A DNA stretch of 46,375 nt, from the IMG/VR virus record IMGVR_UViG_2925891887_000007. One strand, 5' to 3'. The DNA is from a virus (taxonomy: Duplodnaviria > Heunggongvirae > Uroviricota > Caudoviricetes). The notes beneath the pieces are model-generated. The model saw nothing but the letters and a program-made list of their open reading frames with translations. It did no database searches and was not told the origin of the DNA. The first letter of the stretch is position 1. Every line of letters starts with the position of its first letter. The translations under genes and the position numbers were made by a program. Shown here piece after piece: positions 12,444-46,375 of the stretch.

Positions 12444-12695
12444 ATGATGAACATCGAAGAACTGCGTAAAATTTTTTGTGAAGATGGCCTCTATGCTGTG
12501 TGCGTTGAAAATGGAAATATTGTTAGTCATTACCGCATTGTGTGTTTGCAAAAAAATGGGGCTGCGTTAATTAATTTTGTGGATGCCCGAGTGACGGACG
12601 GATTTATCTTGCGCGACGGTGAGTTTGTCACTTCATTACAGGCATTGAAAGAGATCGGAATAAAAGCTGGCTTTTCTGCTTTTTCAGAAGAATAA
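12444..12695 (+). CDS. Hypothetical small protein (83 aa)
   Basis: ORF with plausible start in the hok-DUF968 region. Confidence 0.55.
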   Translation: MMNIEELRKIFCEDGLYAVCVENGNIVSHYRIVCLQKNGAALINFVDARVTDGFILRDGEFVTSLQALKEIGIKAGFSAFSEE

Positions 12696-12761
12696 ACTCA
12701 TCTACAATCTTGCGCGGGGCTGAACTCCCGCTGAGTAACACCGTGCCACCGGAGAAAACCG

Positions 12762-13040
12762 ATGGCACGCAACGCAAAATATTACAATCATGATAATTCG
12801 ACCGTTCTTGCCCACACGCACGAGCGGTATTCTCATGCATTTAAGTCAGACTGGTACCAGCATCCCCCATGCACTGAAGAACAGGCCGAATGGCTCATTC
12901 AGTGTTACCGCAGGCGCGGATGCGAGGTTAAAAAAGCCCTTAGCCTCGACTACCGTCACTGGATAATCTCCGTCAGGCTCCCTTACTCCGAACGGCCACC
13001 GCGTCCGTCCCGCACATTCCAGCAACGTATCTGGAGGTAA
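12762..13040 (+). CDS. Hypothetical small protein (92 aa)
   Basis: ORF ending 2 nt before the DUF968 gene. Confidence 0.45.
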   Translation: MARNAKYYNHDNSTVLAHTHERYSHAFKSDWYQHPPCTEEQAEWLIQCYRRRGCEVKKALSLDYRHWIISVRLPYSERPPRPSRTFQQRIWR

Positions 13041-40468: not shown

Positions 40469-43400
40469 ATGGCAGTAAAAATTTCAGGTGTACTGAAAGA
40501 CGGCACAGGAAAACCGGTACAGAACTGCACAATCCAGCTGAAAGCAAAACGTAACAGTACCACGGTGGTGGTGAACACGCTGGCATCTGAAAATCCGGAT
40601 GAAGCCGGGCGTTACAGTATGGACGTTGAGTACGGTCAGTACAGCGTTATTCTGTTGGTGGAAGGATTCCCGCCGTCACATGCCGGGACCATCACAGTGT
40701 ATGAAGATTCCCGACCCGGTACGCTGAATGATTTTCTCGGTGCCATGACGGAGGATGATGCCCGTCCGGAGGCACTGCGCCGTTTTGAGCTGATGGTGGA
40801 AGAGGTGGCGCGTAACGCGTCCGTGGTGGCACAGAACACGGCAGCCGCGAAGAAGTCAGCCAGTGATGCCAGCACATCAGCCCGTGAGGCGGCAACCCAT
40901 GCGACTGATGCTGCAGGCTCAGCACGCGCAGCCAGCACGTCAGCCGGACAGGCCGCGTCGTCGGCTCAGTCAGCGACTTCCAGCGCAGGAACGGCATCAA
41001 CAAAGGCCACTGAAGCATCAAAAAGTGCTGCCGCTGCAGAGTCCTCAAAAAGCGCGGCAGCTACCAGTGCCAGTGCCGCAAAAACGTCAGAAACGAATGC
41101 TGCAGCGTCACAACAATCAGCAGCCACTTCTGCATCCACCGCGACTACGAAAGCGTCAGAAGCTGCCACCTCAGCCCGGGATGCGGCGGCTTCAAAAGAG
41201 GCGGCAAAATCATCAGAAACGAACGCATCCTCGAGCGCCAGTAGCGCAGCTTCCTCGGCAACAGCGGCAGGAAATTCCGCGAAGGCGGCAAAAACGTCAG
41301 AGACGAACGCCAGGTCTTCTGAAACGGCAGCGGGACAGAGCGCCTCGGCTGCGGCAGGCTCAAAAACAGCGGCTGCGTCGTCTGCCAGTGCAGCGTCAAC
41401 AAGTGCCGGGCAGGCCTCAGCCAGTGCTAGCGCCGCCGGAAAATCGGCAGAAAGCGCCGCATCGTCTGCTTCAACAGCCACAACGAAGGCTGGCGAAGCC
41501 ACTGAACAGGCCAGCGCAGCAGCGAGGTCTGCTTCCGCAGCGAAGACATCCGAAACGAACGCGAAAGCGTCGGAAACCAGCGCAGAATCCTCAAAAACGG
41601 CTGCCGCATCGTCAGCCAGTTCGGCGTCGTCATCGGCATCATCTGCGTCTGCTTCAAAAGATGAGGCGACCAGACAGGCGTCAGCAGCGAAGGGTAGCGC
41701 CACGACGGCATCCACGAAGGCGACAGAGGCAGCTGGCAGTGCGACGGCAGCAGCTCAGAGCAAAAGTACGGCGGAATCCGCGGCAACGCGCGCTGAGACA
41801 GCGGCAAAACGGGCAGAGGATATTGCATCCGCCGTGGCGCTTGAGGATGCGAGCACGACGAAAAAGGGGATAGTACAGCTCAGCAGTGCGACCAACAGCA
41901 CTTCCGAGTCACTGGCGGCAACGCCAAAAGCCGTTAAGGCCGCGTATGACCTGGCTAACGGGAAATACACCGCACAGGATGCAACGACAGCACAGAAAGG
42001 GATAATCCAGCTAAGCAGCGCGACCAACAGCACGTCTGAAACGCTGGCGGCAACGCCAAAGGCAGTAAAATCAGCCTATGACAATGCAGAGAAACGTCTG
42101 CAGAAAGACCAGAACGGCGCTGATATACCCGATAAGGGACGCTTCCTGAACAACATTAACGCGGTCAGTAAAACAGACTTTGCTGATAAGCGTGGTATGC
42201 GTTATGTGCGGGTTAACGCTCCTGCAGGTGCAACATCTGGAAAATATTACCCTGTTGTTGTTATGCGTTCTGCTGGCTCAGTAAGCGAACTGGCATCAAG
42301 GGTCATTATCACCACGGCAACGCGAACCGCAGGCGATCCGATGAATAACTGCGAGTTTAACGGATTTGTTATGCCTGGTGGCTGGACTGACAGGGGGCGT
42401 TATGCTTATGGAATGTTCTGGCAATATCAAAACAATGAACGAGCCATCCACTCAATAATGATGAGTAATAAGGGCGATGATTTGCGCTCTGTGTTCTATG
42501 TTGATGGCGCTGCTTTCCCTGTTTTTGCGTTTATCGAAGATGGCCTGTCAATATCCGCACCTGGTGCTGATCTCGTTGTTAATGATACGACCTATAAGTT
42601 TGGGGCAACAAATCCAGCGACTGAATGTATCGCGGCGGACGTTATCCTTGATTTTAAGAGTGGGCGTGGTTTTTATGAGTCTCATTCGTTAATCGTTAAC
42701 GATAACTTGTCGTGCAAAAAACTTTTTGCCACAGACGAAATTGTAGCGCGTGGTGGTAATCAGATTCGAATGATAGGTGGGGAGTATGGGGCATTATGGC
42801 GTAATGATGGCGCTAAAACTTACCTGCTGCTTACCAATCAAGGTGATGTTTATGGTGGATGGAATACATTAAGACCGTTTGCTATTGATAACGCAACCGG
42901 CGAACTGGTTATTGGAACCAAGCTGTCTGCAAGTCTGAACGGTAACGCATTGACAGCAACAAAGCTGCAAACGCCAAGACTGGTTTCTGGGGTTGAGTTT
43001 GATGGTTCAAAAGATATTACTTTAACCGCCGCGCATGTGGCTGCTTTTGCCAGAAGGGCAACGGATACATATGCCGATGCGGATGGTGGCGTTCCCTGGA
43101 ATGCCGAATCAGGCGCTTACAATGTCACCCGCTCTGGCGACAGCTATATTCTGGTTAACTTCTATACCGGAGTCGGAAGTTGCCGGACCCTGCAGATGAA
43201 GGCGCATTACAGAAATGGTGGTCTGTTCTACCGTTCTTCAAGAGACGGTTATGGTTTTGAGGAAGACTGGGCAGAAGTTTATACCTCGAAAAATCTTCCA
43301 CCAGAAAGCTACCCAGTCGGCGCACCAATCCCGTGGCCATCAGATACCGTTCCGTCTGGTTATGCCCTGATGCAGGGGCAGACTTTTGACAAATCTGCCT

Positions 43401-43999
43401 ACCCGAAACTTGCAGCCGCTTATCCGTCAGGCGTGATCCCTGATATGCGTGGCTGGACGATTAAGGGCAAGCCCGCCAGTGGTCGTGCCGTATTGTCTCA
43501 GGAACAGGACGGCATAAAATCGCATACCCACAGCGCCAGCGCATCCAGTACTGATTTGGGGACGAAAACCACATCGTCGTTTGATTACGGCACTAAATCC
43601 ACGAATAACACTGGTGCGCATACCCATAGTTTAAGTGGCAGCACGAATGCAGCTGGTAATCACAGCCATAGAGATGGCCGTCGATTTAACCCCAGTGTTT
43701 TTAAAGATACTTATCAATATGGTTATACAAGCTCAGGTCAAAATACCTGGGGTGTACAAGGCTCAGTAGGTATGTCTACGGGGGCGTTAGCTAATACCAG
43801 TACAGATGGTAACCATAGCCACTCACTGTCCGGCACAGCAGCATCTGCAGGTGCACACGCACATACTGTCGGTATTGGTGCACACACGCACTCCGTTGCG
43901 ATTGGTTCACATGGACACACCATCACCGTTAACGCTGCTGGTAACGCGGAAAACACCGTCAAAAACATCGCATTTAACTATATTGTGAGGCTTGCATAA
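40469..43999 (+). CDS. stf: Side tail fibre protein Stf (extended mosaic form)
   Basis: N-terminus [26 protein letters not shown] and C-terminal His-rich HxH region with [11 protein letters not shown] match lambda Stf; long Ala/Ser-rich repeat region. Confidence 0.9.
41865..42082 (+). repeat. Direct duplication (about 86 bp units, 132 bp period) inside stf
   Basis: [29 protein letters not shown] and [29 protein letters not shown] coded by near-identical DNA at 41865-41950 and 41997-42082. Confidence 0.6.
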
Positions 44000-44580
44000 T
44001 GGCATTCAGAATGAGTGAACAACCACGGACCATAAAAATTTATAATCTGCTGGCCGGAACTAATGAATTTATTGGTGAAGGTGACGCATATATTCCGCCT
44101 CATACAGGTCTGCCAGCAAACAGTACCGATATTGCACCGCCAGATATTCCTGCTGGCTTTGTGGCTGTTTTCAACAGTGATGAGGCATCGTGGCATCTCG
44201 TTGAAGATCATCGGGGAAAAACCGTCTATGACGTGGCTTCCGGCGACGCGTTATTTATTTCTGAACTTGGCTCGTTACCGGAAAATGTCACCTGGTTATC
44301 GCCGGAAGGGGAATATCAGAAGTGGAACGGCACAGCCTGGGTGAAGGATACGGAAGCAGAAAAACTGTTCCGGATCCGGGAGGCGGAAGAAACAAAAAAC
44401 AACCTGATGCAGGTAGCCAGTGAGCATATTGCGCCGCTTCAGGATGCTGCAGATCTGGAAATTGCAACGGAGGAAGAAATCTCGTTGCTGGAAGCCTGGA
44501 AGAAGTATCGGGTGTTGCTGAACCGTGTTAATACAACAACTGCACCGGATATTGAATGGCCAGTAGCACCTATAGGGTAA
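43999..44580 (+). CDS. tfa: Tail fibre assembly protein Tfa
   Basis: [58 protein letters not shown] matches lambda Tfa. Confidence 0.92.
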
Positions 44581-44819
44581 ATTCGTAATGATTACCTAAA
44601 TACGTTATTCTTTTGTTCAAAAAGTGATTTTTCTATAGGTAGGGAGTATGTTCTTGGATTAAGAATAAAAAATCGCCATGAAAGAGCTTCATGGCGAGTA
44701 CATAAACGTACAAAATATGATGAAAGTAGAGTGGCGTAAGCCACTATATTAAGATATGACAATAGCGAAGAAAAGTAAATAACATTTTATGGGCGTTTAA
44801 TTGTTAATTATAAAAACTA

Positions 44820-44828
44820 GAGTGCCCG
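44820..44828. repeat. IS1 target site duplication (left copy, GAGTGCCCG)
   Basis: Identical 9-mer directly flanks both IS1 ends. Confidence 0.8.
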
Positions 44829-44843
44829 GGTAATGACTCCAAC

Positions 44844-45347
44844 TTATTGATAGTGTTTTATGTTCAGATAATGCCCGATGACTTTGTCATGCAGCTCCAC
44901 CGATTTTGAGAACGACAGCGACTTCCGTCCCAGCCGTGCCAGGTGCTGCCTCAGATTCAGGTTATGCCGCTCAATTCGCTGCGTATATCGCTTGCTGATT
45001 ACGTGCAGCTTTCCCTTCAGGCGGGATTCATACAGCGGCCAGCCATCCGTCATCCATATCACCACGTCAAAGGGTGACAGCAGGCTCATAAGACGCCCCA
45101 GTGTCGCCATAGTGCGTTCACCGAATACGTGCGCAACAACCGTCTTCCGGAGCCTGTCATACGCGTAAAACAGCCAGCGCTGGCGCGATTTAGCCCCGAC
45201 GTATCCCCACTGTTCGTCCATTTCCGCGCAGACGATGACGTCACTGCCCGGCTGTATGCGCGAGGTTACCGACTGCGGCCTGAGTTTTTTAAATGGCGGA
45301 AAATCGTGTTGAGGCCAACGCCCATAATGCGGGCGGTTGCCCGGCAT
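44844..45347 (-). CDS. insB: IS1 transposase InsB frame
   Basis: 167-aa [30 protein letters not shown] matching IS1 InsB. Confidence 0.9.
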
Positions 45348-45541
45348 CCAACGCCATTCATGGCCATATCAATGATTTTCTGGTGCGTACCGGGTTGAGA
45401 AGCGGTGTAAGTGAACTGCAGTTGCCATGTTTTACGGCAGTGAGAGCAGAGATAGCGCTGATGTCCGGCGGTGCTTTTGCCGTTACGCACCACCCCGTCA
45501 GTAGCTGAACAGGAGGGACAGCTGATAGAAACAGAAGCCAC
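45266..45541 (-). CDS. insA: IS1 InsA
   Basis: 91-aa [45 protein letters not shown]. Confidence 0.9.
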
Positions 45542-45596
45542 TGGAGCACCTCAAAAACACCATCATACACTAAATCAGTAAGTTGGCAGCATCACC

Positions 45597-45605
45597 GAGT
45601 GCCCG
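45597..45605. repeat. IS1 target site duplication (right copy, GAGTGCCCG)
   Basis: Identical to 44820-44828. Confidence 0.8.
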
Positions 45606-45949
45606 ATATTGTTTATCTTGCTTTAAAATAATGTACTCAAACCAAATTTTTGAGCTAAAAGCTCAAATAATATAAATGCAATGATAATGTTTAATAAGAC
45701 AATTAGCTTGCTTTGTATTTTCATTTCGGAATACTGTTAAGTAACTTTGATGACACTAACAATAGATCGGAATTTTCTTAGAGTCAATGGTCACTGTTTT
45801 TGCTTGCAAAGCAAATCTTTTTGGTGGTTATAAGTTTTCTTAATATAGTCACCTATGCAACTTGTTCCGTGTGGAGATTAAAGGTTAAAATTTAATGCGA
45901 AGATGGAATTATAATATATTTTTTTATAATTAATTTAACCTTAACATCG

Positions 45950-46048
45950 TTGCTGGCGGCATGGAAGAAATATCGGGTCTTGCTGATGTCGTGTTGGCAC
46001 TTCCTTAGTGCGGTTATCGAATGGCCAGCTGTACCTGTGGGGTAAAAA
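45950..46048 (+). pseudogene. Degenerate remnant of a tfa 3' end
   Basis: TTGCTGGCGGCATGGAAGAAATATCGGGTCTTGCTG...ATCGAATGGCCAGCTGTACCTGTGGGGTAA parallels tfa 44497-44580. Confidence 0.5.
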
Positions 46049-46177
46049 CTTTATATGGGTGCTATTTTTATAATAGCTGGTAAAAACTGGCCGAACTGAA
46101 ATTCACTGTTGATAAAAAAGATGTGTTTGAGTGTATGTCATTGTTTTCTTAATGGAATCCACTAGAATGCAGCGAAT

Positions 46178-46375
46178 TTAAGAAGGTGGGTTTTTATTGG
46201 AATATAAACTACAATAATGCTCAACTCGTTCGTAGAATTGTTTTTTCTTATTTTTTGGAATGCTAACCATTATATGCATTATGGGGGCGATACTTCCTGA
46301 TAATTTACATGATGCATACATTGAAGCAATAAATTCAATATCATTGTCATCAAAGTTAAAGCTTTCTCCGTCCAT
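46178..46375 (-). CDS. Hypothetical small protein at window edge (start codon at last 3 bases of window)
   Basis: 65-aa ORF in AT-rich DNA; upstream region not visible. Confidence 0.3.
   Translation of the reverse strand: MDGESFNFDDNDIEFIASMYASCKLSGSIAPIMHIMVSIPKNKKKQFYERVEHYCSLYSNKNPPS

Follow-up and report, generated by a model that had tools for sequence, protein, structure and literature searches.

A recent IS1 insertion and truncated tfa remnants, probable scars of serial module replacement, in the right arm of a Qin-like prophage of Escherichia coli

Introduction

Alternative tfa (tail fibre assembly) genes occur in invertible tail-fibre segments, in which the two tfa genes are convergent. 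Such segments and their invertases are those of Mu (G/Gin), P1 (C/Cin) and e14 (P/Pin). The locus described here, the right arm of a lambdoid prophage of Escherichia coli, resembles them in carrying a second tfa-derived sequence near its fibre genes. It differs from them in that this sequence is in direct orientation and comprises ~100 nt of tfa, with neither an invertase nor crossover repeats.

The prophage itself is to be compared with Qin, the cryptic prophage of K-12. The two share the integration site in ydfJ, the genes dicB, hokD and rem, a tfa gene that is 95.5% identical and a last stretch of ~270 bp before ydfJ that is 85% identical. In Qin, however, pinQ-ydfK-ynfT lie between tfaQ and the prophage end and no tfa stubs (5'-truncated copies of the gene) are present, whereas the prophage studied here is full-length and has two other blocks, referred to below as cassettes A and B, in place of pinQ-ydfK-ynfT.

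Blocks of this kind are familiar from lambdoid mosaic scars and morons (Hendrix/Juhala) and from the exchangeable effector loci of EHEC. As in those systems, the blocks found here are AT-rich, have their own predicted promoter and terminator, lie between the last tail gene and attR, and vary among similar prophages. The difference is that, at this locus and in the phages that we checked, each cargo block is preceded by a direct, 5'-truncated tfa 3' end. Experiments have shown that lambda and Rac/Qin exchange DNA by homologous recombination in tfa (PMC3945230), and the tandem or nested lambdoid prophages known at ydfJ are described as one means by which effector loci accumulate (PMC8112680).

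Cassette A is also the site of an insertion sequence. The defining features of IS1 have been summarized, including the duplication of 8 or 9 bp of target per transposition (PMC12428005). The element at our locus shares with IS1A and IS1B of K-12 a length of 768 bp, imperfect repeats of ~23 bp, insA/insB' with an A6C motif, a 9-bp duplication and an AT-rich target. Nothing notable sets it apart from them beyond its new site, seen in 1 of 5,426 complete genomes.

Results

The window, i.e., the whole stretch of DNA analysed (46,375 nt), is identical to positions 2387423-2433797 of NZ_CP195467.1 from E. coli 22AR0322. Its genes run in the order integrase gene, dicB, ydfABC, hokD, rem, lysis/head/tail genes, J, lom, stf and tfa. 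Because of this run from integrase to tfa, we identify the window as a complete, full-length Qin-like lambdoid prophage in ydfJ. The insertion splits ydfJ, the 5' end of which is at attL and the remainder ~700 bp past the window end; the core common to attL and attR is TTATGGATTTC. Along the right arm, the order is stf, intact tfa, cassette A, a first tfa remnant (stub 1), cassette B, a second remnant (stub 2), a conserved end of ~285 bp, and attR. The conserved end, which lies past stub 2 and is followed by ydfJ, is ~85% conserved in >2,000 E. coli genomes, K-12 Qin included.

The side tail fibre gene stf (40469-43999, plus strand) appears in the ORF listing, is annotated with 1176 aa, and is labelled by RefSeq as a prophage tail fiber N-terminal domain-containing protein. 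The intact tfa that follows (43999-44580, plus strand, annotated tfaQ) is a full-length tail fibre assembly gene by the Caudo_TAP definition. Its product of 193 aa matches Pfam Caudo_TAP (PF02413) at 3e-42 and PHROG 105 at 2.5e-98, and its last ~200 nt match the Rfam family RF02111 (IS009) with 225 bits.

An intact IS1 of 768 bp and of the IS1B type occupies 44829-45596 on the minus strand, as judged from its length, repeats, ORFs and RefSeq annotation. The terminal inverted repeats are imperfect: GGTAATGACTCCAACTTATTGAT at 44829-44851 (IRR) and GGTGATGCTGCCAACTTACTGAT, read on the minus strand, at 45574-45596 (IRL). Both ends fit the IR consensus pattern (0 and 2 mismatches), and no such match is expected by chance. 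On the minus strand, insA is an ORF of 91 aa at 45266-45541, overlapped by the insB frame of 167 aa at 44844-45347. The A6C slippery motif AAAAAAC is at 45284-45290 (IS1 position 307), and RefSeq labels the product an IS1B-family transposase with programmed frameshift. The 9-bp target sequence GAGTGCCCG is found at 44820-44828 on the left and, abutting IS1, at 45597-45605 on the right. These are the two copies present in the whole window, both directly next to the element, which confirms the identical flanking repeats that had been read from the sequence alone. Hence all the features by which IS1 is recognized were found, i.e., 768 bp with ~23-bp repeats, insA/insB' at A6C and a 9-bp duplication.

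Classical IS1 targets are AT-rich regions, often with G or C at the ends of the duplication, and the present site fits this description. The flanks have 27-31% G+C, as compared to 49% for the window, while the 9-bp target itself is G+C-rich. The insertion is therefore placed, as was first proposed, in AT-rich DNA downstream of tfa, and tfa is untouched by it.

The uninterrupted locus could be recovered by comparison with IS1-free relatives. Among the matches listed, at least 9 genomes have the empty site, with flanks that are 100% identical and a span that is exactly 777 bp (768 + 9) shorter. The target is single in all empty-site relatives; it is present once in ARL09/232, a New Zealand strain like 22AR0322, and in loci L012-L014. 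When IS1 and one repeat copy were removed, 22AR0322 and ARL09/232 differed at 2 positions in 20,599. IS1 occurred at this position in 1 of the 5,426 complete E. coli genomes. Query coverage was >=80% in 4 of these genomes, and the other three have IS1 elsewhere (at the stf 3' end, inside tfa, and at another place in the spacer), each with its own 9-bp duplication. Since the site is unique among the 5,426 genomes and a near-identical sister retains the empty site, the IS1 hop is simple and very recent, and took place within the clone to which the source strain belongs. The sequence-only reading had called the insertion simple and probably recent, and this description holds.

The DNA entered by IS1, cassette A, is 586 bp long without the element. 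Its left part (44581-44819, 31% G+C) was delimited by composition and by 92-100% identity in 830 E. coli genomes, and its right part (45606-45942, 27% G+C) by composition and comparison with relatives. The cassette was found in 830 of the 5,426 genomes (940 places), at several prophage sites including those next to yodB and next to sitABCD. It is also present in phages ev099, mEp332 and PhiR70_1, and is absent from K-12 Qin and lambda. Between lineages it diverges by ~5%. The left edge is always a tfa stop codon, belonging to an intact tfa in L012, L014, ev099 and mEp332 and to a stub in L013 and L015. The right edge varies: it is stub 1 in the source and L015, other DNA in L012, L013, ev099 and mEp332, and the conserved end in L014. 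An apparent occurrence of cassette A together with a stub in ev099 and mEp332 turned out to be an artefact of joined BLAST pieces, and local mapping gave tfa followed by cassette A without a stub. With its low G+C content (27-31% vs 49%), predicted promoter- and terminator-like sites on the minus strand and patchy presence, cassette A is a candidate moron.

We found on the minus strand of cassette A an unannotated ORF for a hydrophobic peptide of 33 aa, MKIQSKLIVLLNIIIAFILFELLAQKFGLSTLF, at 45623-45724, the stop of which is 17 nt from the IS1 target. Its length, start and stop are kept in four other lineages (L012-L015). Between L014 and the source, 5 nt differ, with 1 aa change, and there are 6 variable sites across four aligned copies; the L015 copy has ~83% nucleotide identity and 5 conservative aa changes. 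No Pfam or PHROG match was obtained for the peptide. Upstream of the ORF, a consensus scan of the empty-site locus of ARL09/232 (L002) gave the promoter-like site TTGACT-17-TATTGT at 45759-45787 on the minus strand (L002 11011-10983). The site is conserved in L015; it is a consensus match only, and the region has no more such sites than expected from shuffles.

Across IS1 from the ORF, the terminator scan predicted a rho-independent terminator at 44663-44697 on the minus strand (L002 10674-10698), with an 11-bp stem followed by TTTTTTATTC. Both the MFE and the centroid fold contain this hairpin. Together with the stretch leading up to it (~90 nt in all), the terminator is ~97% conserved in L015, as compared to ~80% for the rest of cassette A. 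On the minus strand, two hairpins lie about 160 nt past the IS1 target, the second of which is a strong terminator-like stem with a T-run, and a 321-nt region of the cassette folds better than its shuffles (z = -3.8). IS1 lies between the 33-aa ORF and its predicted terminator. From their sequence features, these elements suggest that cassette A carries a gene for a small protein, the 3' end of which resembles an sRNA and has been cut off by IS1. The prophage sRNA PasB was considered for the RNA-like part since its flanks are rich in IS009 hits, and was rejected: PasB maps to the interval flanked by tail genes I and J in E2348/69, and the window does not contain the sequence of its probe. When the cassettes were compared with Rfam, no known RNA family was found except for IS009 hits on tfa-derived DNA.

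Immediately after cassette A comes stub 1 (45943-46045, plus strand), a 5'-truncated, decayed copy of tfa nt ~477/484-582 with its stop codon at 46043-46045. A diverged, same-strand copy of the last ~100 bp of tfa had been noticed here from the sequence and taken to end at 46048; the copy is genuine, and the later end reflects three further matching A's beyond the stop codon. Stub 1 is 74% identical to tfa nt 484-582 and differs from it by three small indels; the two are on the same strand and have the stop codon in the same place. The local alignment score was 68, whereas 500 dinucleotide shuffles gave 17.5 ± 2.2 and never more than 28, and the reverse strand gave 20. A repeat search recovered stub 1 independently, in register with tfa.

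The translation of stub 1 ends in ...IEWPAVPVG*, and its middle is out of frame relative to Tfa. When stub 1 was assessed as a tail fibre assembly gene, 33 codons were alignable, the upstream DNA was unrelated (27% G+C, with nothing fibre-like) and no full-length Caudo_TAP ORF was present. Stub 1 is a dead, non-coding fragment of an older tfa and not a gene. It occurs in ~600 genomes. Uninterrupted loci with no gene and no tfa-like duplication at this position would have spoken against the sequence-only reading; the IS1-free relatives keep the same stub. Strain 2012C-4502 has a 94.7% copy with one extra base, which PGAP annotates as a tfa that is frameshifted and lacks its N-terminus. Intact tfa genes sampled as full-length matches to stub 1 were 74-80% identical to it. 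Stub 1 and a further ~45 nt are followed by cassette B in the source and by a Bcr/CflA transporter gene in L015. With ~26% divergence from the end of the resident tfa, as against ~5% variation in cassette A, stub 1 is not a recent copy of the resident gene.

Cassette B begins at 46049, runs to the window end at 46375 with 32% G+C, and continues for ~300 bp beyond it as far as stub 2, making ~610 bp in total. It is unrelated to cassette A. RefSeq annotates in it a hypothetical ORF of 65 aa (WP_000348576.1; 46178-46375, minus strand), an orphan with no Pfam or PHROG match and with 13 close clusters, all from E. coli, near-identical to it and 45-83 aa long.

Stub 2, the third tfa 3' end, was located at 12685-12806 of the 22AR0322 locus (L001), equivalent to 46684-46805 in window numbering and ~650 bp past stub 1. 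It is on the same strand as tfa and more decayed than stub 1. Its 5' limit is tfa nt 465; the same limit and the ~100 nt downstream are shared with stubs in phage 2G7b and in a sitABCD prophage. In all, the tfa 3' end is present three times in the right arm, as direct copies that are in register and lie 688 and 756 bp apart. An origin of these units by tandem duplication was rejected, because cassette A, cassette B and the conserved end resemble one another no more than shuffles do. Both stubs start aligning with the resident tfa at nt 484/485, which could hint at a preferred join; against this, stub 2 reaches nt 465 when aligned with closer relatives, and breakpoints elsewhere vary.

Comparable stubs were found in mEp460, 2G7b, 2B8 and sit prophages. 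Their 5' breakpoints are at tfa nt 311, 409, 420, 440 and 465, and all of them share one orientation and separate fibre genes from cargo. The effector genes NleG, EspM2 and Ibe of phage 2B8 are interspersed with two stubs, and in phage 2G7b a methyltransferase gene is flanked by two stubs. A given breakpoint class goes with a single upstream module. The 440-class stub is always 38 nt after an S74-type fibre gene (mEp460, L010, L013 and L015), and because of this constant distance the stubs of this class are taken as identical by descent. L012 and L013 have the same chromosomal site and cassette A; L012 has stf and tfa, and L013 the S74 fibre gene and a stub. When the receptor-binding modules were exchanged, the crossover on the right must have fallen within the 3' end of tfa or a short way past it.

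When the phage collection was searched with the tfa 3' end, 103 places in 87 records were obtained. Among the best 60 of the 103 hits, 13 lay in unannotated or 'hypothetical' DNA and started inside the query. It may be noted that PHROGs has separate families consisting only of C-terminal Tfa fragments.

Discussion

We consider it probable that the right arm of this Qin-like prophage at ydfJ combines a recent, intact IS1 insertion with tfa stubs that are scars of serial module replacement and cargo stacking. New fibre-tfa-cargo DNA would have come in from the left, with its right-hand join within the old tfa, leaving the last ~100 nt of that gene on the old downstream cargo. Such a replacement would have taken place at least twice at this locus. 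An IS1B-type element transposed into cassette A with a 9-bp duplication. Stub 2, followed by the conserved end and attR, lies downstream of stub 1; the arrangement therefore argues for repeated replacement or stacking and not for one lost cassette. As to the route, illegitimate recombination with an incoming phage or the collapse of tandem or nested prophages at ydfJ may be envisaged. No att core was found between the cassettes; apart from the genuine attR core, the search gave a single chance match, which lies elsewhere. This result neither supports a collapse of tandem prophages nor speaks against it. If only short, diverged stubs survive, the reason may be that a longer stub would recombine with the incoming tfa, with loss of the new cargo. 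An intact tfa with a stub-1-type 3' end before cassette B was not found among E. coli complete genomes and phages.

Both the IS1 hop and the tfa stub are of ordinary, well-known kinds. The recurring layering of tfa 3' end and cargo is a regularity of which, like tfa stubs themselves, we found no description in the literature; it fits accepted mosaic lambdoid evolution. The last ~100-270 nt of tfa may even act as a portable homology 'linker' in units made of a tfa 3' end and cargo. If this were so, the units would form a homology-driven cassette array, in which relaxed homologous recombination stacks, exchanges or removes them, and the occurrence of stubs amid the effector, sit and methyltransferase cargo of many phages would be explained. 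Taken jointly, such a linker array and a small membrane protein/sRNA-like element of cassette A split by IS1 strike us as rather unlikely.

A local origin of the duplicated tfa end was also considered. Cassette A might have entered by a Campbell-type single crossover between a circular or tandem intermediate and the tfa 3' end. Stub 1 would then be the duplicated end of the resident tfa, decayed since. In-register direct repeats do flank cassette A, and tfa is a proven site of homologous exchange (PMC3945230), but the ~26% divergence of stub 1 from the resident tfa end is out of proportion to the ~5% by which cassette A varies between lineages. Moreover, cassette A is found without a downstream stub in L012, L013, L014, ev099 and mEp332, and its presence therefore does not entail duplication. 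We regard this origin as quite improbable, and return to serial replacement as the preferred explanation.

The sequence-only reading had seen in stub 1 the trace of an ancestral alternative tail-fibre tip or assembly cassette that was lost. One part of this stands, as stub 1 derives from a tfa gene distinct from the resident one. The other part, a cassette that could be switched by an invertase as in Mu G, P1 C or e14 P, is largely refuted and is given very little probability here. In its favour, K-12 Qin and Rac have a pin gene right after tfa, and alternative tfa genes are known in invertible segments. Against it, stub 1 is on the same strand as tfa and not convergent with it, the DNA upstream of it is non-fibre DNA of 27% G+C, and a second direct stub lies downstream. 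A tblastn search with PinQ over the 2.5 kb between tfa and ydfJ (L001 10.5-13.1 kb) gave no invertase remnant, the best hit (E 3.6) being elsewhere, and no inverted repeats fit as crossover sites: those recovered by the repeat search are short and weak, and none brackets fibre DNA. The annotation downstream of tfa to the prophage end has neither an invertase nor a fibre gene. Thus, where a search for invertase or alternative fibre genes had been suggested downstream, the DNA has a second, older stub, the conserved end and attR in ydfJ, with no serine invertase and with all three tfa ends direct. A resolvase-like stretch suspected in L015 was also dismissed, as it had no match to PinQ.

It is likewise highly improbable that stub 1 is kept for a function, be it as a small RNA of the IS009 type or by providing the downstream cargo with a promoter or leader. 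In favour of a function, both stubs have weak RF02111 hits, and stub 1 is 94% conserved between the source lineage and L015, two lineages in which a large portion of cassette A agrees at ~80%. Against it, both hits fall well short of the gathering score, and indels and frameshifts accumulate in the stub. The conserved island in L015 (94-97%) is not confined to the stub but takes in ~120 nt of cassette A as well, for which a recombination mosaic is the better explanation. The stubs resemble RF02111 IS009 in that the model aligns with the tfa 3' region, and differ from its members in scoring 32 bits (stub 1, on unpaired model columns only) and 40.8 bits (stub 2) against a gathering score of 117. 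They are not members of the family. Since its best score is on the coding 3' end of intact tfa, IS009 mostly reflects coding conservation and appears to model a protein-coding segment.

By itself, the locus matters little, being a clean, datable IS1 hop next to a pseudogene scar. Cassette A is present in 830 of the 5,426 genomes and in viable phages and is unannotated, and is therefore a cheap target for small-protein or sRNA discovery. The stub pattern could help to delimit units of moron or effector cargo in lambdoid prophages and to order module replacements at prophage right ends. It could also help to avoid the mis-annotation of tfa stubs as Rfam IS009 RNAs or as short 'tail fibre assembly' genes; PGAP already marks stubs with other breakpoints as truncated tfa pseudogenes in other genomes.

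The prophage right end and comparison with K-12 Qin

The whole window corresponds to a full-length Qin-type prophage, carrying int, xis, dicB, ydfA-D, hokD, rem, tRNA-Ile and tRNA-Arg, along with lysis, head and tail genes. Qin of K-12 is a relative residing at the same ydfJ site and is heavily deleted. It also has pinQ-ydfK-ynfT at the position where the window prophage has cassettes A and B, two AT-rich cargo blocks.

Beyond the window end, a third tfa 3′ end, more decayed, was found at this locus in direct orientation (stub 2; 12685–12806 of L001, the extended source-strain locus, equivalent to 46684–46805 if the window is extended). Its 5′ limit lies at tfa nt 465, a limit common to the stubs in phage 2G7b and a sitABCD prophage, and the ~100 nt downstream likewise match those following the stubs in these two. 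On the 3′ side of stub 2 are ~285 bp that are conserved at the ydfJ end in more than 2,000 E. coli Qin-type prophages, K-12 included.

Exchange of receptor-binding modules at the tfa 3′ end

Two related prophages (loci L012 and L013) both adjoin yodB, and they share the same site and cassette A. One of them carries stf and intact tfa, whereas the other carries a self-chaperoning S74-peptidase fibre, followed by a tfa stub starting from nt 440. The pair is a clean case of a receptor-binding-module swap, with the tfa 3′ end as its right boundary.

The coding 3′ end of intact tfa (44342–44540) matched the Rfam model RF02111 ‘IS009’ with 225 bits, and a second, sub-threshold match was obtained at 45932–46007. 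Rfam lists RF02111 as an RNA gene. The model seems to describe a protein-coding segment and the pseudogene stubs derived from it; hence, IS009 matches in prophages probably just mark tfa.

A minus-strand unit in cassette A and IS1 insertions

Cassette A, which 830 E. coli genomes carry, as do the phages ev099, mEp332, and PhiR70_1, contains an unannotated predicted unit on the minus strand (44663–44760 and 45623–45787). It comprises a promoter-like site and a conserved hydrophobic ORF of 33 aa; next comes a stretch of high conservation with two hairpins, at whose end a rho-independent terminator is predicted. This stretch appears Hfq-sRNA-like. IS1 lies between the 33-aa ORF and the terminator, and is transcribed in the same direction as the unit.

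The small-ORF unit is bracketed by a 25-nt inverted repeat (44730–44754 and 45838–45862; arms 80% complementary) with a perfect 12-bp core, ACTATATTAAGA/TCTTAATATAGT. The number of such cores expected by chance is estimated at roughly 0.06. The two arms could be the termini of a miniature element, or else a chance occurrence.

Four more independent IS1 insertions, each with its own 9-bp duplication, were found in related prophages (L003 5110–5877 and 8749–9516, L004 4943–5710, L005 6064–6831). Their sites are inside tfa, in ydfJ, in the stf 3′ end, and in cassette A at a position other than that of the window copy; all four share the orientation of the latter.

Other features of the window

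The 65-aa hypothetical protein WP_000348576.1 (46178–46375, minus strand) gave no family match. Its relatives are solely near-identical E. coli proteins with annotated lengths varying from 45 to 83 aa, and the ORF may be spurious. The start codon of this ORF coincides exactly with the window end.

Within stf, 40860–41750 encodes a long, internally repetitive Ala/Ser/Thr-rich stretch of the tail-fibre protein, in which several families of direct repeats (24–44 nt) occur along with one 107-nt pair.
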